A stretch of DNA of 64,000 nt, taken from contig PS015134.1 in assembly GCA_048213135.1 (NCBI GenBank), positions 62,001-126,000 on the forward strand, in the 5' to 3' direction. Both the position numbers and the translations under genes were made by a program. Source of the stretch: Reclinomonas americana ATCC 50394. Taxonomy: Eukaryota. Under the pieces are notes generated by a model, which saw only the letters and a list, made by a program, of their open reading frames with translations, searched no databases and was not told where the DNA came from. This document shows positions 1,086 through 49,783 of this stretch, one piece after another. Within the stretch, counting starts at the first letter, position 1; each line of letters opens with the position of its first letter.

Positions 1086-4000
1086 TCATATCTTCAACCC
1101 CGATGTGCAGTCGCCGCTCGTCGCACACGCGGTCGCCGTCGACGTGGCCACCACGCCACTCTTTGGTACACACTGTTTTGTCGACGTAGTGAATGTCCAC
1201 GATCCGCACGCAGTCAACTGCGAGCACCACAGCGAGCATGCTTGTGGCCCAGTTGTTGTCTTAATGGCCCACGTGAGATCGCCGCCGGGTCGGTCTGCAT
1301 ACCAACAAGAAGCCACATCAGTCACGAATCCCTCATCTCTCATCTTCCGAAGAGCATTCACACTCACCGGTGCTGGTCTGGAACCCGCTGCTGTCATACG
1401 CCACCACACTCGTCTTGCGTCCCGACACCAAGCAGAAATGCGAGCCACACACGTTGCTGGTTTCTGAATTGGCGGCTACAGCCGGCACGGTGCTCTGCGT
1501 GCAACTGTAGTGAGCTAGTCGATTCCTCACAAGTTCCTGCTTATTACCGATCACGTGCCTTCAACGTGCACACACTCACTCCATACGTATTCGATGCCGC
1601 AGCAGCATCCAGGAACGTCCACGATCGACACAGTGAGGACTGGTCACATAATTCACAACACCCGACCTCGCTGGCAACAGAAGGCATCACAGCCAGGATC
1701 GCGCCGCCAGGTCGATCAACTGCCTCGAACTGGCACACTTCCAACGCCGCTGCTCGATTTGACGGAGATTGAGACGCCGATGGCCGACAACGGTGCACAG
1801 TGCGGAATCTCAACGCAACGAGCCACAATTCCATTCTGTACTGTTGCACAACCAGTATTCGTTGCTGTACACGCACAGCAATCACCGTCAGCATCGCATC
1901 TCTCTGACTGACACCCACAGCTGCGCAGAACGTGCGAGCCTAACGAGGAAATGAACATGACTGAGTGAAAGACACAGCACCCGACCACTTTCTCTTCCGT
2001 GGAGAGCGAGAGATACCCCAACAGGCCGTGCGTATCCCTCTCCTCAATAAATGCACACTCCACCATTCGACGCACACGCACACACTTCTCCACCCCTGAC
2101 ATCTCTGCGCTACAATCTTCACTCATTAACGTCGACACTGCGGCACGCTCGCACGCGAGGCGCAAGAAGAATAACCAACCATCACCTACAACTTCCCTTC
2201 TACTCTTTCCTTCCTTTCCGTTTCCCTCCCTTCCCCACCCACGTCACCAGGTCTATGGGACGTGGACTTGCATGTGGAGCACAAAACGCCAAACAACCCC
2301 TCTCCTCTTCCCCCCTTCTACCTTCTCCCTTCCCTCCCCATTGCGCACCATACACAATCGCGAACTGCTTGGTGTACGTCAGCGCGCCATCGCTCACTTG
2401 CACAAACACTTGCAGTCGCCGACTCAGTGGCGGAGCCACCGAGATTGTCAGTTGATTGCCGCCAACCAGACTGAACAGAGCCGCATGCACACCGCCGACA
2501 ATGCTGAATGTCGGCGTCTGTCCCGTATTGAGATCCACCATGCTCAGTGTGCCCACAGTGAATGGCACCGTGGCACTCGAGTACGTCTGCGCACCCGACA
2601 GGAGAATGTCACTCGGCGCCACATTTCCTGCATACCTCACTCGTTTAGCCAACACACGCACACTGGCCGGATGCGTCTCTGCAGTCTCTCCTCCCTCACC
2701 AATGGCGAATGCGGAGAGCGCCACATACGAGCTGGTCAAAGTCCATCGCGTGCACAACTCGTAGGTGCCAACAGCTACACCTGCCGCTCCAATCGTCAGC
2801 GTGATGCTGTTCGAGCTGCCGAATGCACTGCTGATGCGCGTGGATCCGACGAGAAGCACACTGTGGGGACCACCGAATCGCGCCGCTCCCACACACGCAC
2901 CATCGGCAGTGCCACTCACGCCAGCCGAGCCACAGATGGTCGTCACCGCACCGGCATAGGTCACTCGTCGAATGGTTTTGTTGATAAATTCGCCCACATA
3001 CACCACTTGGTTCGTGGCATCCACCGCGATGCCCGTGGGTTGATTGAACGAGGCTGCTGCACCCGTGGCATTGGCACTCCCCGACACACCGTTTCCCGCC
3101 AACGTGGTGACCACGGCCGCGGAGGTGACGGCACGCACAGCGTGGTTTGTCAACTGCAGCACACAGAGTGTCAAGAGTCAGCAGAATTTAACCTGTGATT
3201 ATGCATGCCTGCACACTCACATCGGCGACAAACATCGTTCCCGTGGATTGGTCAATGGCTAGATTGGCAACACTGCGCAAGGCGAGTGTGTTTGATGAGT
3301 GAAGGGAGAGAGGGAGGGAGGGAGGGAGAGACAGAGAGAGCACAAGAACGCACAGTTTGAACTGAGCTGCCACGCCTGTGCCATCCGCAAAGCCGCATGT
3401 GGTGCCAGCAAACGTGGTCACTGTGGCTGCAGGTGTGATGCGTCGAATGCGGCAGTTGCTGCCATCATCATCGCGTGCGCGCACGAGAGTGAGCGAGAGA
3501 GCAAGAGGCCGCAAGAAGAATGGATTACACAATCGACAGAGAAGACGAGTTGCATGTAATGCATGACACAACTTGTAATCGCCCACATACAAGTTGCCCA
3601 TGGCGTCCAGGGCCAGCCCCTGTTGAGAGAGCGCACACACTCAGTGCGTCAGCGCAGCACAGCAGCAAGCAGCGCCCTCTGTCGACGTCGCGCACGCACC
3701 AATGGTCTATTGAATCTTGCACTTGCGCCCACGCCGTCGGTCGTTCCCCATAAACCAGCCGTGCCCGCGAAGGTGGAGACAGTGGCTGGAGAGACACCAA
3801 TGGCGGCGGCATAGGGCGACCACTCAAATGAGTTGGCGGTGCCACCAGCGACATTGTTGGGATTCACCCACGCGTTGAGAGTGGCCGCCGAGCCAGTGAT
3901 GTTGTTGGCGACGGCGGTGGTCACTGTTTGCGCGTCTGTGGGAAAGTATGCGCGAAATGAGATAATGAGATAGAAACGTGCACTCATTCGCAGTGCGACA

Positions 4001-4103
4001 CGTGCACGCAACACGCTGTGCCGGCGAGCAAGTAGACGATGAGCGCGATGCTCAAGAGCGCACGCATAACACCCACTCGGGTGAACACGCGGAGAGTTGC
4101 CAT
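1086..4103 (-). CDS. Secreted/surface protein: signal peptide, NHL-repeat beta-propeller, cadherin-like domain, two PAN/apple domains (multi-exon)
   Basis: Exon 1 MATLRVFTRVGVMRALLSIALIVYLLAGTA-Y|AQ is signal-peptide-like. NHL repeats include VSTFAGTAGLWGTTDGVGASARFNRP and VTTLAGNGVSGSANATGAAASFNQPTGIAVD. Cadherin-like segment NVAPSDILLS...FSIVGG...VQVSDG. PAN-like segments DRPGG...CCELCDQSSLCRSWTF and DRPGGDL...CSLWCSQLTACGSWTF. Stop at 1086. Confidence 0.8.
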
Positions 4104-4407
4104 CTCGCACAAAAAACCCAGATGGAAACGGCTAGAACTCCGGGTTTGGCGCCAAATTAAGTTGGACGGATTCTTCGCGCTTCCCAGCCCGCTTCTTCAC
4201 TCGCAGCGCTGTGCCTGTCTCATACACAGTGCCCTCGGCAGATGGGCCAGTCGTCAAGGGCACCCGACTGTGTACAGTTGGCGAAATGGCGTGCAAATTC
4301 GCCGGAGTCCCATTCCCGCCGAAAAGCGATTTACTTCGCAGCACACGCGCACTGATCAGAATCGCGCTTCACGGGATAGCTTCCCACACCTGCGCACGAC
4401 AAAACGA
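4104..4407. promoter_or_regulatory. Putative bidirectional promoter
   Basis: About 300 bp separate the divergent ATGs at 4103(-) and 4408(+). Confidence 0.4.
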
Positions 4408-7400
4408 ATGAGCGACGCAGCAGCAGCGAGCGCAAGTGACGAGCGAGATGGCCAGATGGCCACCTCAGGTTCAACCTCACACACAACAACACACGCACTC
4501 GCACACACGCACGCACTCTGTCCCTCTCTCTGTCAGTTCTCGTTCTCTCACTCTCTCACACACTCACGCACACGCGCACGCCTGACGATTCGCTCACACT
4601 CACACTCACACACTCATACAGCGTCACCGACTTCATCCTCGACAGGCTCCTCGGGAGTGCCTCCGCCTCCCGCGCAATCGGCATCGGCGGCGGGTGCGGC
4701 GAGCACTGTACCAGCGACGGTTGTTGTCGCAGGCGCAGTCGATTCATCATCCTCTGTGTCATCATCATCATCGTCGCAATTGGCAGTCGGGGGAGCAGAG
4801 GTGACGGGGGAGAAGGCATCTGCTGGTGGTGGGACAGGAGTGTCCTCTACGGCGGCGGCGGCAGCAGCTGCGGGAAGCGGTGCGAGTGGAGTCGCGACGG
4901 GCGAAGTTGGGTGGAATGAGGGATTGAGGGGAGAGAGAGAGAGAGAANNNNNNNNNNNNNNNNNNNNNNNNNNNNNAAGTTGGGTGGAATGAGGGATTGA
5001 GGGGAGAGAGAGAGAGAGAGAAAAGGAAGAGCCTCATGTGGCGCACAGGCTCTGACAGAGGGAGACGCTCTCCATCTCCGCTCGTTTCTCGTGTTGTGAG
5101 CGAAGAAAAAACTCATGGGGACGCACGAAGACGCTCCATCTCCTCTCGATTCTCGCGCACAGAGAGAGAGGGAGAGTGAGAAGAGCGGGTGTAAACAGGA
5201 GTTCATGGGGCGCTCGTACGCTTCTGTAACGTCGCTCTCAGTCTCCGCGCACTTCTCACGCTGAGAGGGAGAGAGAGAGGCAGAGAATGGTAGCACAAGA
5301 AACCTTTGCATTGAGAGAAGGAACAGTGAGTGGGGGGAGAGAGAGGTGGAGAATTGGTCACCGCTCAGGCTCTTGCCTCTCTCCACCCTTGCTCGTTTCT
5401 TGCGTCGAGAGACAGTGGACGAGTGGGGAGGCAGAGAATGGGGCCACTCAGGCTCTTGTCCAGGCGGAGAAGGCCGCTTTGCCGCTCCACCTGCGGTCGC
5501 TTGTTGCACAGAGAGGCAGAGGAGGGGAGAAGATGGAGACGCAGAATAGGAGCTCCATTGCGCATCGCAGTGCTTCTCCAGGAGAAGGAGGCACGTTACT
5601 CGCCACCATCGCGCACAGAGAGAGAAAGACAGATAGAGAGTGGCAGATTGAGAACAACAGTTGCTCAGCAGACACGTTCCTCGGTACTCGTGTGACCGCT
5701 CTCACGCATTCTTTCTTCTCTCTCGCTCAGCGTGTTGCACACAATTCTCAACTCAGCTTCCGTCTCCTTCGCCCTTTCTCCCTCTCTCCCTGTCCTTCTC
5801 CCCGATTCCATCATTCTACGACGATTTCTCTTGCTCGAGTCGTCTCATCGCTCTCCCGCACAGTTGGTCCCGCTGTCGACATTCCTCGAAAGGTTCCAGT
5901 ACCTGGAGAAGGGCGGCCGTGAGAAATCCCCTGTGGTGTGCGTGGAGGGTGCGTCGGAGATCACTTGTCCACGAATTGCATGTTCGATATTGCATTTGAC
6001 TGTAGACCCGTGTGCAGGCATTGTCGTTCGCAAGCGGTCAAATAATCGTTGCGCGTTGGTTGTGTTTCCTCCCTTGATTGGTTCCTCGTGTAGCTGACGA
6101 GTGGGTTGGTGTGTGAAACGCAGCGCGATTGCACTTTGTGGACATTGGAGGAGATGGCGCGTAATGACTGTACTATTTTTGTCTCGCCGATTCTCGTGCT
6201 CACTTTGATGTGTGCGGGCGCAGGAGTTGAGAAGTTCCAGCTGATGTGCGATCAAAGGTGGGAGCGAAGAGAGAGAGAAAGGGGAGAGAGGGGAAGGGTG
6301 GAAAAGGAGTGGGAAAATCCTATTTTCTGCTCTGCAGTTTGTCGTCTCTGCGTTTGTGTTTCTGTCTCATTTCGCTTTCTCTCTCGAATTCCGACGTCAT
6401 TCTCGTCAGTGCATGTGGTATTTTCTCGATTAGCGAAAGGAATGTGGAGAAGGGGAAAGATAGATAAGGAGAAGTGAAGTGGGAAGGCTGATAGACGAGG
6501 GAGAATGAGACATGGGGATAGGAGGGAATGGACGGGCACACTCTCCAGTGAATTGTCGTCTCTCCCGTCGTCCCCCTCTATCCCCTTCTCTTCCACCTTT
6601 CCAATCCCCTGACTCTTATACCGTTCTCATCCTCCTTTCTCTTCCCCTCTTTCCCCCTCTTTCCCCCTCTCTTTCCCCCTCTTTCCCCCTCTCTTTCCTC
6701 CTCTCTCCCCCTCTTTCCCCCTCATTCCCCCTCTTTACCCCTCTTTACCCCTCCGCTCACTTCCCCTTGTCCATGCACAGAGAATTCGACGGCCAGCTGG
6801 CCGACTTTGTGCAGTCGCTGCAAGTTGGAGATCACCTGCGAGTCGAAGGCGTGGCAGGTACAGAGACCCCCCTTCTCCCATTTGTCCTCTCTCTCCCTCC
6901 TCCCTCCTTCTCAATCTTCTCCTCCAACGACAGCCCGTACCATGGCCGGCGAGGTCTCCCTCGTACCCCACCGCGTCCTCCACCATCGACCGGCACCGGC
7001 CGACGCCAACGGCATCGGACACCTCGTGCAACAAAAGTCACATCCGAACTACTCGCTGCCGCAGCCGACGATTTCGCTCTCCGAGTTCCGTGCGAGATAC
7101 GAAAAGCTCGAGGCCGGAGTGGACTGCACGCAGCACAAGATGGAGGTGATTCAGGGTGTGGTCGTGCGCAAGCGCACACTGAATGCCCGCCTGCACTTTG
7201 TCGACGTTCACGGAGATGGTGTCGAAAAGTTCCAGTTGCTGTGCGACCAAAAGTGCGTTGCTGTTTTGTGTGTCCTGCGGGGCGGGGTGAGGGTGACACG
7301 TCTCTCATTGCACCACGCGCGCGCAGTGTGTACCGCGGCAACGTCTCCTTCGCCGTGTCGGCTCTGCGCTTCGGGTACATGGTGCACGTTCAGGGCTTCC

Positions 7401-8665
7401 CAATAATGAGTGGCTCTGGTGAGTTGAGTCTGGCGCCGATCAAGATCACGGTGATTGCCACGAATGGATTGGTGAGTCTGGTAGTGCGAGGGAGGTGGCG
7501 TTCTGTGTGGTCACGTTCCCACCGCCTCTTGTGTCGCAGGGCGCACCGGTGTTCCCCGGTGGCCACGTGCCCAGCCACCTGCAGCCGACCATGAATCTCA
7601 GCGACTTCAAGGCGGCGTTCGACGACAAGCTGCAAGCCAACGACCGCCTGAAAGGCGAAGTGCACCGTGTGGTGGGCATGGTGCGCCAGAAGAGATGTAT
7701 CAACACTCGACTCTTTTTTGTGGACATTGCCAGCCTGTCACGCAATCAGACCGCCATGGTCGACAAGCTGCAGTTGATGGCGGATCAAAAGTGCGCACTC
7801 TCATCACCTCCCGTTGCCTCTCTTCCCCTTTGTTTCTCACCACCTCGCAGCGACTACCCCGGCCAACTGCCCGACCTCATGGAGTCGATCGAGCCAGGGG
7901 ATGTGGTGTTCGCTCAGGGCTACCCCGCCAAGTCGAACACGGGCGAGCTCAGTCTTGTACCGGCCTCCATTGTTATTTGCCCGAATCACACACGCCACGC
8001 GTCGCCCATGGTGCCGTCGGGAGTGGCCGCCACAGTACCTACGGGTGGCGTCCCGCTACCAGTCGGCGTCACCTTGTCGCCGCGTCTGAATCACGCGGCA
8101 GGCGGCGCACCTCATCCGCACCCGCATCACCACCACCCACACCCGCACCCTCATCACCCTCACATGCCGCATCCTCACGCGCACTTGCCGGGCCAGCCAC
8201 CAGCANNNNNNNNNNNNNNNNNNNNAGAGAGAGAGAGAGAGAGCGGAACGTGATACAAAGTGATGTTGCTGCTTGTGTGTGTGTGTGTGTGTGTGTTTGT
8301 GTGTTACTGTCTCTTTTCTTTTTCCTCATGCACAAGATGCACAATGCGACGACTAAAATGTGTATGTGTTTGCGAGTGTGAGAATGAGTGCGTGTGCTTG
8401 TTTGTGTTTGTGTGAGTATCAGAGTGTGAGAGAGAGTGTGTGTGTGTCTGTTGTTTGTATGTTTGTGTGTGTATGCATGAAAGTGAGGCAACGAGAATTG
8501 GGAGTGGCAGTGTTGTGAGTGAGGCTTTTTATTATATCCCAAGGTCATCAGAACGAGAATTGGTGGCAATTTGGCAGGTTTGCATCAAAATAAGCTGTAG
8601 CAGCTAAAGTGAGAATTGAGACAAACGAATTGCCGGGATTCATCTGTTTGTGCTTGCACGTTTGG

Positions 8666-8759
<94 letters not shown>

Positions 8760-8791
8760 NNNNNNNNNNNNNNNNNNNNNNGTAGTAGTAG

Positions 8792-8835
<44 letters not shown>

Positions 8836-9795
8836 ATTGCACACGTTGTATGCTGTGAAATTCGAAGCCGGGCACGCAAGAAAATCGTGATGACTCATCT
8901 TTTTTTCGCCACCCCAGGGCATGAATTCCGCGGCTCTCCCACCCGGGGCCTACCCGCCCGGCCCACCCGGCTCGTGGGTGGCCATGAGTCAATTCGCTCC
9001 ACATCCGCACGCCACGCCACCAGTGATGCGCGGTATGCCGGGTGCCATGGTCGGCAACGGGCACCGGGGAGGTGCTGGCGGTCGACATCGTTGCGTGCAC
9101 TCAGAAAGAGAAGGGCGTTTGGCGATCCGAGGCTGACTGCTCTTTTGTCTGTCGATGCAGGCGGCGGTGGCGGTGGTGGTGGCGGTGGCGGCGGCGGTCA
9201 CCACCAGCATCATCATCAACATCACGGACATCCGCACCAACATTCGCGCGGACCGATGCCGATGCATGCCGACAATGGTGCATACTATCAGGGAGGCCCC
9301 GATGGTGCAATGATGGTGCGTGTGAGTATTTGGGAGAAGGAGGGCGAGGGTCAGGGGAAAGGATGCGAGCATGAGATCTGAGATCGGTGTGGCATACACG
9401 GAATTTACATTCACGGTAGACAGAGCACAGACTCCTGCGAGATACAGCAAGTGCGTGTGTGCATGTTTGCGAGTGCGCGAGTGAGAGACGGAGGGCGTGA
9501 TGTGTGTTTGTGTGCATGATATCAAATGTGCGAGTGATTCTTAGAGCGGGCATTGTTTCCCTGTCTCCAGTGCCACTCACATGCTGATGCGCAGAACCCA
9601 CCACCCGGCCTTCCCGCGCCACAACTGCCTTCCGCTGCCGTCGGGTCCGCTCAGCCGCCACCACAACCCTCACAACCACAACAACAACAACCACCACCAC
9701 CACCGGCATCGTCAGTACCGGCGGCGGCAGGGGCAGGGGCATCACCCGCACCACCGGCCGCGGCCAACACTGCCTCCACCGACACCACCGCTTGA
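4408..9795 (+). CDS. Protein with three tandem LysRS-type anticodon-binding OB folds, plus Ser/Ala-rich N-terminal and His/Gly/Pro/Gln-rich C-terminal low-complexity tails
   Basis: Repeat 1: LSTFLERFQYLEKG..IVVRKRSNNPRLHFVDIGGDGVEKFQLMCDQ..LQVGDHLRVEG..GEVSLVP. Repeat 2: ISLSEFRARYEKLEAG..RKRTLNARLHFVDVHGDGVEKFQLLCDQ..VQGFPIMSGSGELSLAP. Repeat 3: MNLSDFKAAFDDKL..QKRCINTRLFFVDI..IEPGDVVFAQGYPAKSNTGELSLVP. Each follows the eukaryotic LysRS N-terminal OB-domain pattern. Confidence 0.8.
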
Positions 9796-10724
9796 GGCCC
9801 CTGAGCCCTCCAGGAAGAGGACCGCAGTCTGTATATAGCTACATGCACAAAGAAACACACACGCGCGCACTCACTTGTCTAGCCTATCCATTCGACAGTG
9901 AGCGCGTGTAAAACGACAGCCACAAAGTGTATAATTCAAGGACAGTTGCAGAGGCGATCAGCAGGTGGGTGCAATTGGAGGGAGGTCTCATTTCTCAATC
10001 ACACCATCAAATGCAGAGATCATCGTCGGGTGGGTGCAGGCCTTCTTGTAGCATTGCAGCAGAAGTTGAAGAGAAGATTAGTGTGAGGCAGGTGTCTTGT
10101 TCTTTCTCTGCAGCATTGAGAAGATCATTGGGTGGAGGGAGACAGTCCTTCTCTCTGTCACATCGCCAGCTGAGAAATGATCATACGGGGAGGCCTCCTT
10201 GCATAGTCGCTGAGGAGATATGCAGGTCTCTTTCTCTATTGCGCTCCAAGTTGTGGCGAGCGCAGGTCTCATGATCATTGTTTTGCAGCACCAGGTTATG
10301 TTTGGCAGCAGAAGTTGCAGAGAAGATCATTGGGAGCGAGGCCTCCTTTCTCTGTCACAGCATCGGATGCAGAGATGCTCGTCGGGTGAGCGCAGATCTC
10401 CTCTGTGTAGCGGCAGTTGTTTACGGAGACGATGAGCGTGAGGCAGTTGACTTGTTCTATCTAGAAGCATCGTTCGAATGCTCCTTGCTGCGCTGATGGC
10501 ACCGGAACTAATGTCGAATAGCTGCCTCTCTGCAAGAGAAGGGACTGCAGGAAGCAAACTCAACGTCGAGGAAGGTTTCGCAGGTGCAATCAACACTCTT
10601 TTCTCCGAGTTTCAAGCCTTGGCTAGTACACAACACAGGCTACTTGACACTGGAGACAGTTAAAGACTGAGAAAGCGACTGAAGTCCGCACAAGAGTCAT
10701 TGTTGTCCTCTTCAAATCTCAATC

Positions 10725-18308: not shown

Positions 18309-18486
18309 AGAGAGGAAATCGAAAAAGAAGCAGGGTGCTTTTTATGGGTATCATGTTTTTTTCTCAGTTTCTTGTAAAATCGCCATATCGTCTGTTATCA
18401 ACCCTCAGAATGCGAGGATAGGTGTGGGGGAAGCAGTGAGTGTGAGCGGGCACAAAAAAGGAAAATAAATGGAAAAAAAAAAGAAG

Positions 18487-18558
18487 AGCTCGTACGTGGA
18501 GTCGAACCACGGCTACAGGATTCAGAGTCCTATGTCATAACCGTTAGACCATACGAGC
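18487..18558 (-). tRNA. trnQ-CUG: tRNA-Gln(CUG)
   Basis: 72-nt cloverleaf: acceptor GCTCGTA/TACGAGC, anticodon arm TAGGA-CTCTGAA-TCCTG, T arm CGTGG-TTCGACT-CCACG. A poly-T Pol III terminator follows. Confidence 0.95.
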
Positions 18559-24485: not shown

Positions 24486-26168
24486 TCAATCGCGCTGCGT
24501 TCCAGCTTGCAGCATCTCCGCCTCTTGCACCACAATATCTCGCACCTGCCGCAAAATGGCGTCACGTTCGGCGGGATCTGTCACCACCTCGACGCGCACT
24601 GTCGTCAGCATGTCGTCAGCGCGCTCCGTCACGAGCCGGGTCGAACCAATGGTCTTGTCTTTCAAAAACAGCGTAACAATACGCCGAGGATTGCTGCTGC
24701 CGCTGCTGCTGCCACCTGCTTCCGTTCTCAGCATGTCGCCAGCAATGCTTACCGTGTGCAGTGTCGACTGAGCCAGATAGTACACATTGTACCGGGCGTG
24801 CAGGTGGCGACTGAGGACACGCAGGTGTTTGCCGGGCAGTGACTCCAGCACGACGCCGTCGTCGTCGGCCGCCAAAACACCGCCGCGGAACAGTTTCACC
24901 GTCAAGTGTGCCTGCGAGTTGCCCGACGCAACAATTTCATACGTGTAGTTGTTGTACTGGCCAGCCAGCACCATACTGGCGACGTTGGCATTGTGATTGT
25001 GGGGCACCGTTTCGCTGGCGTCGTCTAACATGTGGATGCGGATCTGGTACGGCCATTCGTCGGCCTCTTTCGGCATCCAGTGCACGCGTGTCATCACGCG
25101 CCGCTCGGCGCCAACGGCCGCAGTCGTGTAGAGACGATCGACAAGCAAACTTGACGACAGGTGGCCGCCTTGCTGGAAAAACACGATCAGCGCCTCGCCA
25201 ATCTCGCGCACCCGGTGAATGTCGGAGGGCAGCAGCTTGCGAACGGACCTCGACTGCAGCAGCTCGGCCAAACGCCGCTTGGCCAGCTCGACATGTGATT
25301 CAATAATGGCCAGCTGCGTGAGACCCAACAGCGTTCGAGAGGCGGCACGACGCACGCCGCTAACCACGTCGTCCAACTGCTGCTGCCGCTGCGGTCGCGG
25401 AATCGATTCATAGCGCAACCGTCCGCGCACCTCCACCGGTGTCCGCGGTGCTGGCTCCTCCAGGTAGGCAGTGGTAACGACGCTGCCGCGTCGCACCAGA
25501 TGCACAATGGCTGTCGGCTCGTGCACCGTCACGCAGTACATGGTGCCAGCGGTGATGTGCTGACACCGTCCAACACCAACGCAGCTGCGACTCGGCTCGT
25601 CGAGGCGGCGCAGCTCCATGTCATCGCGGTTTTTTTCCGGTAAACGCTTCTCGCTGCCGACGATGACGAGGGAGCGAATCATCATCTCCGTGATGATCGA
25701 CACGGTCTTGATGGTGAACTCGCCAAAGAGCACCGTCATGTGGTGGTCGTGCGAGAGTGACTCGTCGGGCAACACGCGATCGACCTCGGGCATCTCGACA
25801 AACACCACATAATCTTCGGGATTGGCGCAGAACGGTGACGGCGAACACGGCGAGTCTTCCAGCGAGGAGTCAAAGTGGCTGCCCGGGAGCAGGCCCTCGC
25901 CACCAATGTCGTGCAGGGCGCAGTCATCTTCGGCACTCCGCAGCAGGTTGCGGATGTTAACGGTGAGTCGACGGCACGACAATTTGTCGTCGCAGGCAAA
26001 GGCATTATCGTACTTTGTCACCGCATGCGCGAGACGCTCGCTGGAATCAGCCAGCGAGCGCAGACAACGCACGACGGTGCGGAGAAGTGCGACCTCTGCG
26101 GCGGCTGTGGCAGGAAGGGGTGAGCAGAGGAGCCAGGAGTGCATGACAGAGAGAGAGAAAGACTGCAA
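24486..26168 (-). CDS. Largely intronless cupin-fold protein (one intact and one degenerate cupin-like domain)
   Basis: 560-aa ORF. The C-terminal IRIHML..VPHNHNANVASMVLAGQY..YYLAQSTLHTV..IVTLFL fits an HxH...H cupin. The upstream SHDHHMTVLFGEF..TAGTMYCV is a weaker copy. The true start may lie in a small upstream exon. Confidence 0.65.
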   Translation of the reverse strand: MQSFSLSVMHSWLLCSPLPATAAAEVALLRTVVRCLRSLADSSERLAHAVTKYDNAFACDDKLSCRRLTVNIRNLLRSAEDDCALHDIGGEGLLPGSHFDSSLEDSPCSPSPFCANPEDYVVFVEMPEVDRVLPDESLSHDHHMTVLFGEFTIKTVSIITEMMIRSLVIVGSEKRLPEKNRDDMELRRLDEPSRSCVGVGRCQHITAGTMYCVTVHEPTAIVHLVRRGSVVTTAYLEEPAPRTPVEVRGRLRYESIPRPQRQQQLDDVVSGVRRAASRTLLGLTQLAIIESHVELAKRRLAELLQSRSVRKLLPSDIHRVREIGEALIVFFQQGGHLSSSLLVDRLYTTAAVGAERRVMTRVHWMPKEADEWPYQIRIHMLDDASETVPHNHNANVASMVLAGQYNNYTYEIVASGNSQAHLTVKLFRGGVLAADDDGVVLESLPGKHLRVLSRHLHARYNVYYLAQSTLHTVSIAGDMLRTEAGGSSSGSSNPRRIVTLFLKDKTIGSTRLVTERADDMLTTVRVEVVTDPAERDAILRQVRDIVVQEAEMLQAGTQRD

Positions 26169-26647
26169 CGTTGTGTGTGTGTGTAGGGAGTGGCAGCACG
26201 GACAACAAGGAGGAGCACAACAACAACAACATGTGACGGGTCGAACCTTGTTCAGTGGTTGCAGCCATGTGCTCCGAAAAAGCGATAGAAATGCAACAGA
26301 GCGAAGAAAACCCGGCAGACAGATATCTGATGATGATGTATCTGACGACAGGACTCGTCATGACCGGAAACTTCGACTCGTTCAAGAGACCCCACCTGCT
26401 GCGGCTGGCCATTATGGGCCATGGACTCGATGGGGGATGGCTGGCGATGGGCTTGATGATCGATGGCTTCAATTGTTGTTCCGATATCGATTCTCGTGCG
26501 TTTCAATTTCGCTGGTGAGATCCAGCTTGCCAATCCTGCAGGCTGCTCGTTGCCTTACATCGCCTGCTTCCTATCGCCGGATGTGTTGCTTGTCAGCATG
26601 CCACACACATTCCAGCGATTCGCTTTGCGTCTACATAAGCGTTTCCA

Positions 26648-27446: not shown

Positions 27447-30400
27447 TTAGCGCTGAATCTCGACCTTCCTGCGCGCCGTGCCAATGTCGCACGAGTTGAC
27501 CTTGGCAGCAAAGCGCAACGACGACACACTCTCCAGCAGATGCAGCATGGCCGGCGAAATGTTGACAAACATGAGCGTCTTGGAGTTGCCGCCGAGCGAC
27601 TTTTGCAGCAGGTAGGTGAGGCGCGAGTTACGGTACGGCACGTGGGTCGACTTGTTGGCCAGTGCGGCAATCACATCGCCCAGGCACGACAGCGACTTGT
27701 TAATGTGCTGCGTCTCCAGACGGCGGTCGCCCGTGTGTTGCGTCTGCTTCAGGCGCTCCGAGCCGGCCAAATCGATGAGGTTCAGCAGGCCCTCGGAGAC
27801 GGCGCCGGTCTGCAAGGGGGGAAAAGAGGAAAGGGGAAAAGAGGGAAAGGTAAGTAAGGGGATAAAGGGAAAGGGGGAAGGGGAAGGGGGATAAAGGGGA
27901 CGAGGGGAAGGGCACAGGGGTGAAGAAGGACAAGAGGTGATAGAAAGGGAAGAGGAGAGAGAGAGAGAGCAGAGGGAGAAATGGCAGAGGTGAGAGAGTA
28001 AGGACACATGTGGGAGACAAGAACAGAGAAAAAGGGCACGCGAGAGAAAGGACACACGAGGAAAATGGCAGAGGGAGAGGAAACAACGGGCGATGTGAGA
28101 GAAAAGCACAGACGACAAAGGGCAGAGGCAAGACAGGACAGAGGAGAGACAAGACATAGTAAGCAGGATGATGTGAACGAACAACATGGAGAAGGGAAAT
28201 GGCAAGAAAAAAGTGAGGAGGAGGCGAGAATGGATAGAGGTGCGGAAAAAGAAAGAGCACGAGTACGACACACAGCAGATACAACACGTTGAGGAGCACC
28301 AGCATCGCAACACCCTCGGGAAGTAAAGAAGTGAACGCCGAGGAAAGCGAGCCAATGTTAGTAGAATGCCCCTCTCTCCCCCTTCTCCCTCCCTCCAACC
28401 TTCTCCCTCTCCACTATCTTCCTCCCCACACACCTGATGATTGTGTCCCTTGATGTACAGCTGGAACACAGAGTGCGAGCGCGACGAGTTGGCATTGAGC
28501 TTGGTCGCGGCCCACGAACGCTGCCGACTGGCGCGGATGAGCAAGTCGTGCACCTCAGCCGGATCACGCACGGGCACTGCAGTGGATGAGGAAGAGGAAA
28601 TTGAGTGCGCTGCACAACTCAGCAGGGCAAGCGAAGAGCAGCACGCAACAGAGTTCGAGATTGGAGACCGACACACTGCCGTCGCCATTCTGCTTGATGT
28701 CGTACTTGAGGTTGGTGCCGGGTTCGGCGAGCAGATCGCGAATCTGCTCGTTGTAGATTTCCAAAAAGCTGCGCAGAGAGGGAGGCGAGTGAGAAAAGGA
28801 GCAGAGATAAGGACAGAAAGTGTTCTCTCGCTCACCACTCACTTTCACCGCAGCTCTCTCTCATCGCTCACTTCTCGCTCTCTCGCTCTCACTCTCACCG
28901 CTCGCTTCCCAGCTCACTCTCGCCGCTCGCTTCCCAGCTCACTCTCACCGCTCGCTTCTCTCTCTCTCTCTCTCTCTCTCTNNNNNNNNNNNNNNNNNNN
29001 NAGGGGGAAAGGGTGAGCAACAGGGAAAGGAGGGGGATTGAAGGGAAAGGCAAAGAGGGAGGGAAAGGGAGAAAAAAGTGACAGTGTGTAAGAATGGTAA
29101 TCACATTCCCTCTCCTGTTCTCTCTGAGTGAGTGAGCGAGTGTGAGCGAGAGAGGAGAGAGAAGAGAGAGAGGAAAGAGCGCATCTTCTCTTAATCCGCC
29201 TCGCTCTTTCTCTGAGCGAGTGAACGTGTGCTTGCGTGCGGAGAGGAAGTAGTCTCTAATCGCAGTCTTCTCTCACCCTCATTCTTTGTGTGCATGTGCG
29301 AGAGATGGAGAAGGAGAAGCAGCACACAGACCTGCAAGTTCTTCAGTCTCTCTCACACTGTGTGTGTGAGTGAGAGGTCTCTTGTGTCACGTTCTTTTCA
29401 CTGTCTTCTCTCTCTTCCTCCCTTTCTCATGTTCCTTGTGTGCCTACGCGCAAGTGCGTGTGTGCAAGAGCGCGTCGAGAGAGAATAAGAAGCACAGAGA
29501 CCTGTCTCAGAGGTCTATCTCTCTAGGTGCACAAGTGTGTGAGTCAGTGGAGTGAGAGGTCTCTTTTCTCACGTTTCTCTGTCGTGTGAATGAGTGAGAT
29601 CTCTCTCCCTTCTGCTCCTTCTCCTTCTCTCACTCTCTGACTGTGCAAGAGCGTGTTGAGAGAGAGAGAGAGAATAAAGCACAGAGACCTGTCTCAAGTT
29701 CTCTCTGACTGTGCACGAGTGAGCGAGAGGTCTATCTCTCTCAGTGTGTGTCAGTGAGGTCTCTTTTCTCACGCGTTTCTGTCTCCTCCTCGCTCTCTGA
29801 GTGTTCGTGTGAATGAGCGAGAGGTCTTACTCTCTCCCCCTTCTGTTCTCCCTCTCCTTCTCTCACACTCTGACTGTGCAAGAGCGTGTTGAGAGAGAGA
29901 GAGAGAATAAAGCACAGAGACCTGTCTAAAGTTCTCTCTGACTGTGCACGAGTGAGCGAGAGGTCTATCTCTCTCAGTGTGTGTCAGTGAGGTCTCTTTT
30001 CTCACGTTCTTCTCTCCCTCTCTGAGCGTGTGAATGAGTGAGAAGTCTTACTCTCTCCCCCTTCTGTTCTCCCTCTCTTTCTCTCACTCTCTGACTGTGC
30101 ACGAGTGTGTTAAGAGAGAGAGAGAGTGGAGTGAGACCGTTATGGCACGCGCACACACGAGTGTCAACTGTGCAAGTGTGTGTGTGCGTCATAGTGCTTG
30201 TGTAACGCAACACTCTCAATGGCGGCAACGCTCGAGGCTGATGAGGTGGCGGCGGTGGCAGAGGCAGACGAGGGGCGCGCGGGCACTCCAGAAACGCTCA
30301 TGCCCTGTGTGTGCACAACGTGAGACAACAGACTCTGTGTGTGTGTGACGACTTTCTTTCTTTCTTTACGCACTGTCTGTGTGTGTGTGTGCTCTCGTTC

Positions 30401-30805: not shown

Positions 30806-30877
30806 GCTCGTATGGTCTAACGGTTATGACATAGGACTCTGAATCCTGTAGCCGTGGTTCGACTCCACGTACGAGCT
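30806..30877 (+). tRNA. trnQ-CUG: tRNA-Gln(CUG), identical to the copy at 18487-18558
   Basis: Same 72-nt sequence, followed by ttattttttatttttt. Confidence 0.95.
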
Positions 30878-31201
30878 CTTATTTTTTATTTTTTCCCTCG
30901 CCAGCGCAGTGATCGCTCATGGCCCCAGTGCACTACCGAGCATGAGGAATGTTGCGTGGCATGACGGATCTGTGCTCGAAAGTGAAAAATACGGAAATGT
31001 CAATATCGATATTGGCAAAATCGCCCAGCACCTCTATGCCATCCAGCAAGCAGCTGCAGTCTTATTCTCTAAGTCCAACTGCACCTGCATCCGACACCGG
31101 CACTTGCATCCGACACCGCCACTGAGGGACGTCGCGTATTTCGAATTCAAAAACTCGAGAACTGCTGAACAACAACCAGCAAACAAGCAACAGCTGTCTT
31201 G

Positions 31202-36917: not shown

Positions 36918-39900
36918 ATGTCGGTGTGTGTGTTTGTTATCTTCTCTCACTTCTCTTCCCCTCCTCCTTGTGTGTGCTTACTGCTCTTGTTTGACACAGT
37001 TCTCTGTGAACGTGAGTGCGGCGCATGATTCGTCGCTGTCGGTGGTGGTGGAAGGCTTGTCGGGCATGTCCACTCTCGCGGACTTGCTGCGCGATGCCAC
37101 TCGCCTGCTGCGGGAGAAGAATGGAGATGACGGGATGGAGATTGTGGGAGTGGAGAAGCCGATGCAGTTTGACATCAACCTTGCTGCTGGGGTGCCTCTC
37201 GCAGCATTCGGCATCAACTCTTCCACTCATCTCGTCGTCTGTGTGACTCTTGGCGTGGCGTCGAGTGGACGGAGTGGGAGTGGGAGTGGAAGGTATGTGT
37301 CTGGGATGTGTTTGCGAATCATCTCTCTGCGCCAAACATGCAAGTCACTCTCATGTCCTCGCACAGCAACTCGGAGCGAGTGACTCGGTGTGTTTCCTCT
37401 CTTGCCCTCGTCAGAATCTGTCTCCCTCCCTTGTTCTTCCACTCAAATCGAGTCGATGCTGACTGTGTTGTGTGCATGTGCAGCATGATCAACTCGCAGC
37501 GCATCAACATGGCGTTTGAGGTGGTGGAGGAGGCCGCGCGCCTGCGCTGCCAAAGCGCTCTGGCGCAGTTCAGTCGCGATCATTCCGACTTTGATGTGCG
37601 GGCGTGGGTTTCGACTTTCACGCCTGCCGGCATGGATGCGACAGCAGTGAAGTTGTGGCGTGATCGGCATGCGCCATACAAAGGATGGCAGGTCAAGCTT
37701 TTCAAGGAAGTGTATCCGGTGGTGTTTGACTGGCGCGCGGCATTCGATGCCGATCTCACATCCGACCCCTCTTGTGACGCATTTGACGCGACGGCTCTCA
37801 CCTCCATAATGCTGTATGGCGGCTTTGTCGACGAGGACGGTCGCAAGCTGCGGCTGATTGACGATGCCGATGAACGCAAGGCTGTGGAACACCTGCGCGA
37901 GGTACGAAACGAGTTGGTGCACGGGTCATCGGCGTGGACAGAGGCCATTGTGAAAGATAATCTCGACGACGGTGGCGTGTTTCTCTCACTTCTCTACAAG
38001 CTGCACCTTCCTGCTGCTACAGTTGACCAGTTGGCAACACGGATTCGTGAGGCCCGCCACCTCGACTTCAGCGTCAGCACCTTCGAGGAGCGATTGCATC
38101 GACTGGCTGTGCGTGAGCTCTCGTTCTACCAACACGACGAGAGTGTGCGCAAGGACATGGAGATGTATGTGCCACTGCTGTGCTCCCGTGAGCGTGACGT
38201 TTCGTCGAGTGACAAGTTGACAGATCTGTTGGCGGAGGTGGATGCTTTCCTCTCTGACACCAACACCAACCAGCATGTGCTGGTGCTCTTCGGTAACAGT
38301 GGAGCTGGCAAGACCACCACCATGTCCGTACTGGCCGAGCGAGCTTGGCGGCAGTGGCAGGCGGGAGAGGGTAGACGAGTGCCTGTGCGTGTGCCTCTTG
38401 GTGCGCTGCGCAATGCTGATGAGCGATTGTTGGAAGAGGCACTGGAGCGACTGTCACCTGAATTGGGATTCAGCGAGACGGATGTGCGACGGTTGAAGGA
38501 GGAACCACTACTGTTGTTGCTTGACGGGTACGATGAGTTGTACCGTGGTGTGAATCTGTTTGTCAAGAACCAATTGGATGCGTCTGTGTGTCCCAACTTG
38601 AAGGTGATTATCACCTGCCGCGGCGATTATGCACTGACGGCACTGGGTAGTGTGGCGCAGTATCGACGGTATTTTGCACCGGTGGATGCACGAGGACAGT
38701 TGTGCATGCAGCAGCTGATGGAGCGACACATTGCACCATTCAGTCCGGAGCAGATTGAGAAGTACTGTGAGCGACTGGTACAAGTGGGCGTTGATGATGA
38801 AGTGCGATGGTCGACTGCCGAAGAGTACATTCGTGCACTGAAGGGTGTGCATGGACTGGATGCACTGGTGTCGAATCCGTTCCTGTTGGCTGTGGTGGCT
38901 CATGTGTTGCCAGAGTTGGTGGTTAGTGGTGTGCAGCGACCTACTCGGTGTGATGTGTTTGACCAATTCATTCGACAGTGGATCGAGAGAGAGCAGGACA
39001 GGCAGACTTGCCTTGGTGCGACGCGTGTGCCGAGTGAGGAGACGTGCCTCGCTTTCTGTGAGGGACTGGCACGGTTGATGCATGAGAGGAATGCGGTGCG
39101 TGTGTCTGTGACAGAGAGTCGATCAGGTGACGACGGAGAGGAGGATGACGACTTTGGTGGTGCACCACTTGAGTTGCGACGAGTGCAGGAGGGACCATTT
39201 GACAAGTTCCTCGGTCACAAGAACCAGCATGTGCGAGTATGCTGTCCGATTGTGCGACGATATGGTACGACGCAGTGGGGATTCGTGCACCTGTCGTTGC
39301 TTGAGCACTGTGTGGCACGTCATGTGTTTGCGTTGGAGACGTGGGATGCAGACAGGATGTTGACTGTGCAAGATGTGCAGCAGCATGTGTTGGCAGTGCA
39401 ACTGCTGAACGATCGACCATCACTGGTGGAACAGTTGGCAGAGGTGGTGCGACGGTCTCCTATACTGCAAGCGAGACTGTGGGAGGTGATGGAGTTGTCG
39501 CGTGAGGTGGATGAGGAGCGGGTGGTGACGGCAGCAGCGAATGCGGCGACGGTGCTGTGCGCTGCTGAAGTGTCGTTCAGTGGACGAGATCTGTCAGGTG
39601 TGAGAGTGCGGGGTGCGGATTTGAGAGACGCGGTGATGCACAGGACGGTGTGGAGGGGAGCGGATTTGAGAGACGTGAATGTGTGCATGGCGTATGCGAG
39701 GGAGGCGGATTTCAGCGAGGCTGATGTGAGGGGTGTAAAGTGGCCGAGGAAGCCGATGATGAGGCACACTATGTGGGTGACATCTGTCGCTATCACTCCC
39801 GATGGTCTCCACATCGTGAGTGGCAGCTGGGACAACACAGTTAGAGCTTGGTCACTGGCGAGTGGGGAAGAAGTGAGTCGGTTCGAGGGACACACTGGAC

Positions 39901-41201
39901 GAGTAATGTCAGTCGCCGCAACCCCCGATGGCCGGCATATTGTGAGCGGGGGCGAGGACAAAATAGTGCGAGTGTGGTCACTGGCGAGTGGGGAGGAAGT
40001 ACGAAAGTTGCAGGGTCACCATGACTGGGTACAGTCTGTTGCCGTCACTCCCGATGGTCAACACATTGTGAGTGGAGGTCAGGACAGCACTGTCCGGGTC
40101 TGGTCACTGGCGAGTGGTGTGGAAGTGGTGCAGTTTGACGATCGCACTGACAAAGTGTGGGCCGTCGCTGTCCTTCCCGACAGTCAACAGGTGGTGAGTG
40201 GGAGTTGGGACGACACTGTTCGTTTGTGGTCACTGGCGAGTGGAACAGAAGTTCGACGATTTAAAGGTCACGGTGGCTCTGTGTGGTCCCTTGCTGTCAC
40301 GCCCGATGGTAAGCACATTGTGAGTGGTGGAGCTGACGGAGTAGTGCATGTGTGGTCACTGGCAAGTGGGGAGGAGGTGCGACGATTCGAGGGACACGCT
40401 GATAGGGTGTGGTCGGTTGCAGTCACTCCCGATGGGCAGCACATTGTCAGCGGAAGCCAGGACAAGACTATCCGGGTGTGGTCGATGGCGAGCGGTAAGG
40501 AAATGCGCCGCTTGGAGGGTCACACTGACTCGGTGAACTCTGTCTCCGTCCACCCCAACGGTGTGCATATCGTGAGTGGGAGTGGAGACACTACTATTCG
40601 CTTGTGGTCAGTGTCGAAAGATGGTGAAGAGGCTCGAAGGTTGGAGGGGCACACCAACGTGGTGTCCTGTTTCGCTGTCACTTCCGATGGACTTTTCATG
40701 GTGACCGGGAGTGAAGATAGAACACTGCGCGTGTGGTCTGTGGTGACCGGAGAGGAGATGCGACGGATGGATGGCCATGCCTACCCTGTAGTTTCTGTCG
40801 CTATCACTCCCAACGGTCAGCACGCCGTGAGTGGTAGTGAAGCTGGGGAGTTGCGAATGTGGTCACTTGCAACCGGCGATGAAGTGTGGCATTGCGAGTT
40901 GAAAGTTTGGGGACTTAAATCCGTAGCCGTTACTGCCGATGGCACATGTGTTGTTGCGGGCTTCAAGGATGCCGCTACGCGCATGTGGTCACTTATTGAC
41001 GACTCTGAGAAGATATGGGATCCTGAGACTCAGTTGCACTCACCCGCAGTGTCAGAATTTGTCATTCGCCTCTGTGGCGACACAATCGTCATTGTTCCTC
41101 GCAATCGACGCGGCGAGCCAGTCGAGCGCATTTTCGGCTCGTTTCTGACTGACTTTACTGGCGCACTGGGAATGGATCAGGGCGATGTGACTTCGCCTTG
41201 A
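36918..41201 (+). CDS. NLR-like STAND protein: ubiquitin-like + HEPN + NACHT + pentapeptide repeats + 10 WD40 repeats
   Basis: Three exons: MS | Ubl exon about 37000-37292 | 3.7-kb exon 37484-41201. HEPN: FDATALTSIM..VEHLREVRNELVHG. Walker A LFGNSGAGKTT and Walker B LLLLDGYDEL. Winged-helix-type WGFVHLSLLEH. Pentapeptides FSGRDLSGVRVRGADLRDAV. Ten 42-aa WD40 units. Confidence 0.92.
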
Positions 41202-47524: not shown

Positions 47525-48163
47525 TCTCAGCTCTCAGTCACTTCTGTTGCAATCAAACGCGAATGGGACACTGTTAGTTTGACGTCACACTCTCTCTCCC
47601 CAGCAAACACCTATAGTCACCTGTTCCCCTTTGTGCACGTGCTGCATTTGCAGCTTGCATTTCTTGCGCAAGAGCGCCGTCCGATATCGATATCCTCGAC
47701 GTTCGACGTCGAGTCATGATCAGCGCGCTCAATAAAGCATCGCCCAGTTGCATTAACAACAAACAAAAGACTTCATTCACCACATGCGACAATTGTCCAC
47801 AAACCCCTTGCTGGCAATGACCTGGGCACACCAACAAAACAAAACACTTCTTTCAGTCCAAAAATCCCTTGCTATTGCCGCGCCAACGATGACCAAGGCA
47901 CCAACTACCATAGTCTTCTCCAAACAGTCATCTTCCCTTAAGCTTTCAGGAGGCACAAGCAATCGCGTGCTGGCTGGTGTGGTCCAGGACTTCGAATCAT
48001 GGCGCAAAAGTGATCATGATTCAGCATTCATAAAAACAAATAACACACAACCTCTTCTCCAACAGCCATCTTTCCTTTCAGGAGGCATATGCATGTAAAA
48101 GCTTTGCACAACCAGCCCATTCTTCTCTCTTGTCCTTCTCCTGCACTTCCCCCTTCCTTTCGG

Positions 48164-49783
48164 ATGTCCAACAACGACCCCCCTCTCCCCCCCTCCCTCC
48201 TCTCCCCGCTCCTCCACGCCACCTCCACCTACGACGCCCACGACTACGCCCTCGCCGCCACCCTCCTCTCCTCCTGCATCACCGCCCTCCGCGAGGCCGG
48301 CCACGGCGACCACGAGCACACCCTCCGCGCCTCACACACGCACGGCCTCGCCCTCCTCTCCACTGGCGACTATGCACAGGCAATCACCGTGCTGCAAGAG
48401 ACACTGGAGAGGCGGCATCGCATCGACGGAGCGGATCATCGCGCCTCACTGCTGGTGGCCGGCGACTTGGGAAGTGCACTGTACACATGCGGTGGTCGTG
48501 TGCTGGAGGCAGTTGCGGTGCTGCGGGACACAGTGGAGCGACAGCAGCGCGTGTTCTCGGTGCACGTGGAGGACGAGGAGGCGCAGGCACTGAATACATT
48601 GCATGACTTGGCGCTGGCGGTGGAGGCGAGCGGGGATCGCGTGGCGGCGATTGCCATCAATCGGGATGTGCTACGGCGGCGTGCGCAGCTGTTGGGCGAC
48701 GATCACCCGCTGACCATGGTCACGGCGCATAACTTGGGCGTGAGCTTGTCGCGCGAGGGAGGCGAGTGGAGGGAGGAGGCGTTGCGCGTGTTGCAGGAGA
48801 CCATGACGCGTCGGCTGGGCGTGCTGGGTGCGGACCACCAGCACACGCTATTGACGGCGGCCGAGGTCGGCACGGCGTTGCTGGAGCAGGGGCAGCACGC
48901 CGACGCTGTAAACGTGCTGCGTGTGGTCTACGAGCGGCAACTCGCGCTGTTGCCGCCGTACTGTCGCGATGTGCTCGTCACGCATCGCTCGCTGGCCGAG
49001 GCGCTGACGGCCGTGGTCAATGTCGACGATCCGGTCACGAGTGGCGAGGCGGTGCGGGTGAGTCGTGAGCTGGTGCATCGTGAGCATCGTTCGGTCGGCC
49101 CCGATCACGTGCAGGCGCTGATCAGTGCGCACAATTGCGCGGTGCTGCTGATGCCCTTCCCCGAGCACGCCCCAGAGGCACTGCTGCTGTTCGAGGACAC
49201 GCTGGAGCGGCGGAGGAGGGTGCTGGGCGTCGACGACCGCTGCACCCTCAGCACGGCCACGCACTTTTGCATCCTATTACGCGGGTTGCCGGAGCGGCAT
49301 GCGGAGGCCGTGGAGTTGCTGCGCGACACCGTGCAGCGACAGCAGAGGGTACTGCCGGAGAACGACACCGACACGCAGCGCACCACCAATTTCCTCTGCC
49401 TCGCCCTCAACGAGGCGGGTCGGCACGAGGAGGCCGCCGTGCTGTGTCGGGACTTGCTGGCGTGCCGGCGGCAGGTGCTGGGCGACGACCACGTGGACAC
49501 GCTCACCAGCGCCTTTAATCTGGCACTCTTTCTGCGCGGAACCGCCGAGGCCGTGCAAATGCTCGAGGACACGCTGGAGAGATCGCGGCGCGTGTTTGGC
49601 GAGAATCACTGGCTGACGGCGAGTGTGGTGCGGCAATTGGAGGGGGTGGCGGTGGTGGGAGAAGGAGGAGGAGTAAGAGGAGAAGAAGGAGAAGAGGGGG
49701 TTGAGGAAGGAGGAGGTCCGGAGGGGGAGGAGGGGGGAGAGAGGATGGAGGAGGGGGTAGAGAACGCGGGCGTGGATGTATGA
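48164..49783 (+). CDS. Intronless stand-alone TPR protein (KLC/NB-ARC-TPR-type repeats) with an acidic tail
   Basis: About 11 repeats of the type RRVLGxDHxxTLxxAxNLA (e.g. RAQLLGDDHPLTMVTAHNLG, RRQVLGDDHVDTLTSAFNLA). No NTPase motif in the ORF. Confidence 0.88.
   Translation: MSNNDPPLPPSLLSPLLHATSTYDAHDYALAATLLSSCITALREAGHGDHEHTLRASHTHGLALLSTGDYAQAITVLQETLERRHRIDGADHRASLLVAGDLGSALYTCGGRVLEAVAVLRDTVERQQRVFSVHVEDEEAQALNTLHDLALAVEASGDRVAAIAINRDVLRRRAQLLGDDHPLTMVTAHNLGVSLSREGGEWREEALRVLQETMTRRLGVLGADHQHTLLTAAEVGTALLEQGQHADAVNVLRVVYERQLALLPPYCRDVLVTHRSLAEALTAVVNVDDPVTSGEAVRVSRELVHREHRSVGPDHVQALISAHNCAVLLMPFPEHAPEALLLFEDTLERRRRVLGVDDRCTLSTATHFCILLRGLPERHAEAVELLRDTVQRQQRVLPENDTDTQRTTNFLCLALNEAGRHEEAAVLCRDLLACRRQVLGDDHVDTLTSAFNLALFLRGTAEAVQMLEDTLERSRRVFGENHWLTASVVRQLEGVAVVGEGGGVRGEEGEEGVEEGGGPEGEEGGERMEEGVENAGVDV

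Follow-up and report, generated by a model that had tools for sequence, protein, structure and literature searches.

In a 64 kb stretch of contig PS015134.1 of Reclinomonas americana ATCC 50394 (referred to throughout as the window, in whose positions all coordinates are given), a plus-strand gene is predicted to encode three consecutive copies of the eukaryotic lysyl-tRNA synthetase (LysRS) anticodon-binding domain (ABD), followed by a low-complexity tail and without a recognizable synthetase core. The window has a eukaryotic look: its G+C content is approximately 55%, its introns are short, and it contains GA and GT microsatellites as well as 25 runs of N. A first-pass annotation, made by a model from the sequence letters and their open reading frames, had placed three LysRS-type modules here, and we recover all three on the plus strand, at 5864-7989.

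Gene model and repeated units

The gene model runs from 5864 to 8205 on the plus strand and joins nine exons into 443 codons without a stop. GT-AG ends are present in seven of the eight introns, which are 60-76 nt long except for one of 523 nt (6258-6780). The product comprises three units, which we call R1, R2 and R3, with an exact period of 132 residues: the dipeptide DQ recurs at model residues 59, 191 and 323, and the motif GE[LV]SL at residues 92, 224 and 356. Every unit opens with a helix, for which the annotation had given the pattern ISLxEFxxxYxxL; this is exact in R2 (ISLSEFRARYEKL), whereas R1 (PLSTFLERFQYL) and R3 (MNLSDFKAAFDDKL) carry variants of it. The annotated endings, GE(L/V)SL(V/A)P, hold throughout, as GEVSLVP in R1, GELSLAP in R2 and GELSLVP in R3.

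The coherence of R1 depends on one GC donor, at 6157, and this is the weak point of the unit. We adopted that donor because the GT at 6161, four bases on, yields a stop codon when used for the third R1 intron, and the GT was rejected on that ground. The acceptor of exon 1 has an alternative at 5839/5840. Upstream, the frame is open to 5696 with no ATG within it, and neither a start codon nor a 5' exon was found there. A fourth unit upstream was considered and rejected: tblastn gives no signal before 5864, and the frame at 4036-4992 holds low-complexity sequence only. In the same upstream region, a 29-N gap (4948-4976) has the same stretch of around 40 nt on both flanks (aagttgggtggaatgagggattgagg..., then a GA repeat) and looks like an unclosed overlap rather than missing sequence.

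The units derive from the LysRS anticodon-binding module

Sequence searches of the PDB with three different queries converge on LysRS. The exon piece at 6936-7253, which covers half a unit, finds LysRS in 14 of 14 matches (best E 0.0015). R3 can be searched as a single piece because its 60-nt intron stays in frame and, read through that intron, it finds LysRS in 16 of 17 matches (best E 7e-5). A family-only profile, built from four window pieces and the environmental relative P0001 described below, finds LysRS in 18 of 20 (best E 1.8e-8), the remaining two matches lying at E above 1. AspRS, AsnRS, RPA, SSB or any other OB family is absent from these 51 PDB sequence matches (E up to 10).

A profile of 11 LysRS-type N-domains scores the spliced R1, R2 and R3 at 54.6, 56.9 and 69.5 bits, respectively, compared with a maximum of 7.2 bits over 3000 shuffles, 2703 of which scored at all. 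As the profile proteins had themselves been retrieved using R3, the score of R3 is not fully independent; those of R1 and R2 are.

The predicted fold leads to the same family. An AlphaFold model of R3 (pLDDT 82) shows a helix and five strands, with a low-confidence loop that corresponds to the read-through intron. On Foldseek comparison with the PDB, every match listed (ranks 1-50, extra chains of entries already present having been left out) is a eukaryotic LysRS, at E 4e-10 to 6e-9 and with a root mean squared deviation of around 2 Å for all but one; RPA, SSB, POT1 or similar proteins are not among these listed matches. In the ESM Atlas, 30 of 30 feature matches fall in PF01336 clusters. The Pfam family tRNA_bind, which represents the OB domain of Trbp111, Arc1p and EMAP II, has no match at E up to 10 in the window pieces scanned. 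The annotation had allowed that generic OB folds of the type that binds single-stranded DNA (ssDNA) might fit the repeats better than LysRS does. Because the PDB and Foldseek matches are almost all LysRS, the units are not closer to generic OB folds than to LysRS and, as judged from sequence and predicted fold, they are LysRS-derived modules.

Ancient internal duplication

Pairwise identity among R1, R2 and R3 is 35-41%, and the units differ by 0.58-0.70 nonsynonymous (dN) and 1.2-1.7 synonymous (dS) substitutions per site, the latter being near saturation so that the dN/dS ratio is rough. A dS of this size, with dN below it, means that the units were duplicated long ago and that change at the amino-acid level was held in check. 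All three units have a phase-2 intron in the codon right after DQ (6258-6780 in R1; 7253-7326, 74 nt, in R2; 7791-7850, 60 nt, in R3). An intron after DQ in each copy, taken as support for internal duplication, was also part of the annotation, and we agree on both counts: by their sequence, the three modules arose by internal duplication with a common phase-2 intron. The LysRS-specific N-terminal helix is retained in three of three units. The R, F and Q of the pocket described next sit in the first half of the barrel, and by eye this half is much better conserved between R1 and R2 than the second.

The anticodon pocket

An Arg/Phe/Gln trio for reading U35 is generally shared by class IIb enzymes. 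The human enzyme provides the reference, through a cryo-electron microscopy study of LysRS-tRNA-Lys3 (PMC11643047). In the available text of that study, F144 stacks on U35 and U36, to which R136, Q155 and E195 are bonded; U33 and the modified base 34 are read by K141, N159 and R161; T191 and K193 contact the 2-thio group; L142, F144 and M157 pack on base 34; and base 37 is read by H215, H217 and F218 of the linker that joins the ABD to the catalytic core (PMC11643047).

Human numbering was transferred to the units through HMMER alignments to human chains together with the alignment of the units. The set that reads U35/U36 is retained in three of three units, the equivalents of R136, F144, Q155 and E195 being R, F, Q and E in each of R1, R2 and R3. 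Of the other residues that pack on base 34, L142 has a Leu equivalent in every unit and M157 is represented by Met in R1 and R3 and by Leu in R2. The K141 equivalent is Arg and the N159 equivalent Asp in all three. At R161, R1 has Arg and the other two units Asn; at T191, R1 has Thr and the other two Ser; and at K193 the residues are Ala, Ser and Thr in R1, R2 and R3, respectively. No counterpart of the base-37-reading linker follows any of the three units. P0001 has the R, F and Q of the pocket, with the E present in the GELS of the preceding unit. On these alignments, all three units retain the UU pocket, while the features for modified-wobble specificity are largely gone.

Catalytic core, tail and gaps

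P0010 and P0011, two LysRS proteins with a core (PF00152 at 170 and 291 bits, respectively), were used as tblastn queries against the 64 kb at E up to 10. They match the OB region at 7310-7977; no class II catalytic core is detected by this search in the assembled window, where the other matches are at chance level only (E above 2). This accords with the annotation, which had reported no class II catalytic motifs. Because the core is absent, the product lies outside the LysRS enzyme family.

In the aligned LysRS proteins, a short conserved linker leads from the barrel to the core, which is not so behind R3. From 7990, exon 9 encodes instead a Pro/His-rich tail, with 72 such residues between the third barrel and the gap at 8206-8225, into which the tail extends. 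Three inferred tail exons add 172 residues, giving a whole inferred tail of 244 residues (22% Pro, 17% Gly, 14% Ala and 12% His). The low-complexity continuation that the annotation had described is thus present as a Pro/Gly/Ala/His-rich tail after R3. The frames of the tail exons were picked on composition. Other frames are open as well; these, which are Arg/Trp/Cys-rich, were set aside on composition alone. No Pfam family matches the tail exons.

The annotation had also noted short N gaps at 8205 and 8760. Both exist, the exact runs being 8206-8225 (20 N) and 8760-8781 (22 N). Since a length of exactly 20 N recurs in 13 of the window's 25 N runs, the gap size is likely a placeholder and the true size may differ. 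Just past the stop codon of the gene, at about 9960-10500 (+), several loose repeats of approximately 100-130 nt can be seen by eye, for example ...gcagagatc/gctcgtcgggtg.gcgcag....

Relatives and rarity

A full HMMER pass with R3 as a single query over 1.84 billion cluster representatives (E up to 0.001) returned 12 matches, 11 of them with a LysRS-type N-domain. Ten of these 11 proteins reach the PF01336 cut-off; P0009, at 21.6 bits, does not. A clear class II core is also present in P0010 and P0011, and P0012 has a weak core match; the other eight have the OB domain only and give the appearance of LysRS fragments.

The best match (E 1e-9) is P0001, an open frame of 171 residues that lies on an environmental contig of 826 bp and is the one member of its cluster. 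It is 47% identical to R2, with a 12-residue identical stretch (RTLNARLHFVDV), and has no intron after DQ. Its layout is that of a unit end, a linker and the next unit, and the tandem arrangement is therefore not confined to R. americana. Searches of the protein collection for longer proteins gave none that matches either the exon at 6936-7253 or P0001, and a search of near-length proteins with profile A1 gave nothing besides P0001. Among metagenome contigs, the same profile gave 121 pattern-matching stretches, none of which was confirmed by tblastn. The tandem-unit family looks very rare, within the reach of a single-sequence search.

Table 1. Coordinates of the units, exons, pocket codons and gaps of the gene (residue numbers such as R136 are those of human LysRS)
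Feature	Positions	Strand	Details
Unit R1	5864-6986	+	6 exons
Unit R2	7071-7462	+	2 exons
Unit R3	7591-7989	+	2 exons
Linker 1 (R1-R2)	6987-7070	+	28 residues
Linker 2 (R2-R3)	7463-7590	+	20 residues
Model exon 1	5864-5948	+	R1 helix, LVPLSTFLERFQYLEKG...VCVE
Model exon 2	6018-6047	+	30 nt; R1 strand 1, GIVVRKRSNN; R136 equivalent codon 6035-6037
Model exon 3	6124-6156	+	33 nt; R1 PRLHFVDIGGD; F144 equivalent 6135-6137; GC donor at 6157
Model exon 4	6224-6257	+	34 nt; R1 GVEKFQLMCDQ; Q155 equivalent 6238-6240; followed by the 523-nt phase-2 intron
Model exon 5	6781-6857	+	R1 barrel, second half, REFDGQLADFVQSLQVGDHLRVEGVA
Model exon 6	6934-7252	+	R1 end GEVSLVP (E195 equivalent 6951-6953), linker 1, R2 helix and strands 1-3
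R2 pocket equivalents in model exon 6	R136 7173-7175; F144 7197-7199; Q155 7233-7235	+	
Model exon 7	7327-7471	+	R2 barrel, second half, GELSLAP; E195 equivalent 7421-7423; start of linker 2
Model exon 8	7540-7790	+	Linker 2, then R3 helix and strands 1-3
R3 pocket equivalents in model exon 8	R136 7693-7695; F144 7717-7719; Q155 7771-7773	+	
Model exon 9	7851-8205	+	R3 barrel, second half, GELSLVP; E195 equivalent 7945-7947; barrel end near 7989
Assembly gap	8206-8225	.	20 N, inside or directly after exon 9
Assembly gap	8760-8781	.	22 N, inside the gene
Inferred tail exon	8918-9080	+	Pro/Gly/Met/His-rich; frame by composition
Inferred tail exon	9161-9315	+	Poly-Gly, His/Gln-rich
Inferred last exon	9595-9795	+	Pro/Gln/Ala-rich; TGA at 9793-9795

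Other features of the window

Several other coding features lie in the window. On the minus strand at 2200-4131, open frames with repeated ...AGxGxxGxxDG... units have the look of an NHL or six-bladed propeller, and their sole Pfam match is a weak one to Arylesterase (E 1.7e-4). A 623-codon open frame at 24486-26357 (-) matches no Pfam family at E up to 0.001. It is followed at 27447-28838 (-) by a kinesin motor domain (PF00225, E 9.4e-53) that matches in two stretches of one stop-free frame, with an apparent read-through intron between them. At 37173-41201 (+), an uninterrupted frame of 1342 codons contains nine or more WD40 repeats (Pfam PF00400, E 5.6e-93), preceded, as judged by eye, by a P-loop NTPase part and by repeats of pentapeptide-like character, making the product a STAND-type NTPase-WD40 protein. 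The intronless 579-codon frame at 48044-49783 (+) consists of TPR_12 (E 4.5e-38) and TPR_10 (E 2.9e-35) repeats, and an exon at 61542-62288 (-) carries a Cupin_8/JmjC-type hydroxylase domain (E 8.6e-37). Two tRNA-Gln(CTG) genes are present, at 18486-18558 (-) and 30806-30878 (+); there is no tRNA-Lys gene in the 64-kb window.

Proposed function and alternatives

The retained UU pocket, the lost U33 and wobble readers and the missing base-37 linker together lead us to propose that the product is a multivalent binding protein without catalytic activity, whose targets would be anticodon loops that carry UU at positions 35-36 or, if not these, U-rich single strands. We consider this mode of binding probable by a modest measure, and our confidence in the anatomy is higher. 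Three anciently duplicated LysRS-type ABDs, each consisting of a helix and a five-stranded OB barrel, are strung in the predicted product on linkers of 20-28 residues and followed by a disordered tail. Each barrel would read U35/U36 through the retained pocket, with a relaxed reading of position 34, and so engage tRNA-Lys, while the tail may serve self-association or the docking of partners. The annotation had suggested a synthetase-derived, multivalent binder of RNA or tRNA: the LysRS origin and the three modules are borne out, and binding is plausible from the kept equivalents of R136, F144, Q155 and E195.

Several observations weigh against this proposal. The polar readers of U33 and of the wobble base, at the equivalents of N159, R161, T191 and K193, are mostly replaced, and strict tRNA-Lys specificity is therefore doubtful. 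R1 requires a GC donor, unless the assembly is in error by 1 nt. Pfam PF01336 scores 19.6 bits (E 8.9e-4) against a curated cut-off of 27, from a match to only the second half of the intron-interrupted R3, and it scores 16 bits on the exon at 6936-7253 alone. The alignment behind the fold model of R3 contains LysRS rows, which bias the model towards LysRS. P0001 alone matches no Pfam family, and neither of its two weak PDB matches is a LysRS; moreover, it is just one relative among 1.84 billion representatives, in a single-sequence search that reached 11 LysRS-type proteins. The two N gaps inside the gene (8206-8225 and 8760-8781) could hold further sequence.

Two other functions can be envisaged for an intact protein of this anatomy. 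It may be a general binder of U/T-rich stretches of single-stranded RNA or ssDNA, as RPA and other tandem OB arrays are, with no special link to tRNA and with a LysRS ancestry that is historical only. Three barrels on flexible linkers with a low-complexity tail form a typical layout for an RNA-binding protein, and this reading would likewise accommodate a pocket in which the UU readers are retained, the U33 and wobble readers mostly changed and the base-37 linker absent. However, neither the PDB sequence matches (E up to 10) nor the Foldseek matches listed (ranks 1-50) include RPA, SSB or another such OB family, and the helix at the start of all three units is specific to LysRS; we regard a general binder as rather unlikely, if worth serious consideration. 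By analogy with known tRNA carriers, the protein could also be a dedicated carrier or store of tRNA-Lys: xUU tRNAs would be caught by its three anticodon clamps and taken by the tail to a place or a condensate. Such a protein might be a non-enzymatic counterpart of the LysRS precursors preMsk1p and preKARS2 (see below) that brings cytosolic tRNA-Lys into an organelle, or it might be a buffer that keeps tRNA-Lys from translation or from the priming of retroelements. This role is speculative and we think it unlikely; if true, it would represent the first free-standing class II synthetase anticodon-reading module in non-catalytic use.

The remaining explanations question whether there is a distinct functional protein at all. 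A gene copy in decay, whether a pseudogene or a relic of exon shuffling that makes no functional protein, would be in keeping with the division of R1 into exons of 30-34 nt that require a GC donor, with the failure to find a start codon or 5' exon, and with the absence of the protein from the protein collections searched. We consider it improbable in view of the 443 open codons and the GT-AG ends of seven of the eight introns, of units that at 35-41% identity and dS above 1.2 retain their core motifs with dN below dS, and of a relative, P0001, that is 47% identical and has the same unit-linker-unit order. More improbable still is a true LysRS gene, or part of one, with a core that lies in the gaps or on another scaffold or was missed by the gene model. 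The third barrel is followed by 72 Pro/His-rich residues and, past the gap, by similar sequence up to the stop codon at 9793-9795; the tblastn search of the 64 kb turned up no core; and three successive barrels differ from the layout of LysRS. These points stand against the position of both gaps inside the gene, the placeholder-like length of exactly 20 N in 13 of the 25 N runs, and a draft assembly in which the downstream exons are inferred only.

Under the reading that we favour, that of a UU-anticodon-loop binder, barrels that bind xUU anticodon loops would make this a naturally occurring anticodon reader that does not charge tRNA. If true, this would have implications for the trafficking and buffering of tRNA and for the control of translation in protists, and the barrels could offer a modular reagent for binding tRNA-Lys.

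Comparison with known systems

The layout of three LysRS ABDs and a tail without a core has probably not been described before. Full-text literature searches, with supplements and subscription journals outside their coverage, returned no description of a free-standing or tandem class IIb/LysRS anticodon-binding domain. With the ABD of eukaryotic LysRS itself, as represented by the human (9dpl, 3bju and 4dpg), Plasmodium (4h02) and Loa loa (5hgq) structures, the units share the same helix and OB module in sequence and in predicted fold. The differences lie in the architecture around the module: the synthetase has one copy where this protein has three, and it has a core and an ABD-core linker where this protein has neither. 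The R. americana product also differs in the replacement of most wobble/U33 readers and in its long low-complexity tail.

Stand-alone proteins derived from synthetases are well known and include editing domains, catalytic-core paralogues and OB cofactors of the Trbp111/Arc1p type. This last group includes Trbp111, Arc1p, AIMP1/EMAP II and Trypanosoma MCP1. In the available text of PMC12021450, such non-synthetase OB proteins bind tRNA and assist synthetases. By analogy, the product described here would work like a synthetase-derived tRNA-binding accessory protein. It nevertheless lies outside the Trbp111/Arc1p OB family because no tRNA_bind match was found in the window pieces scanned (E up to 10), its own OB domains being of the LysRS type. 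The cofactors of that family contact tRNA at its acceptor or elbow side and not at the anticodon, and they have a single OB domain, often with a GST-like domain, compared with the three OB domains here.

A role in carrying tRNA without charging it is known for LysRS-related proteins: according to the available text of PMC3683045, the precursor of mitochondrial LysRS (preMsk1p in yeast and preKARS2 in human) is an import carrier of tRNA-Lys(CUU). In that case a LysRS-derived protein carries tRNA-Lys without charging it, as the protein described here might do. The precursors are whole synthetases with a presequence; here there is the ABD only, three times over.

Among LysRS relatives that have lost a part, the LysRS paralogue PoxA/EpmA (GenX) retains the catalytic core but not the anticodon-binding domain. 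It is named in the available text of PMC3532385. The R. americana protein is its mirror image, with PoxA/EpmA representing a core without an ABD and the tandem protein an ABD without a core.

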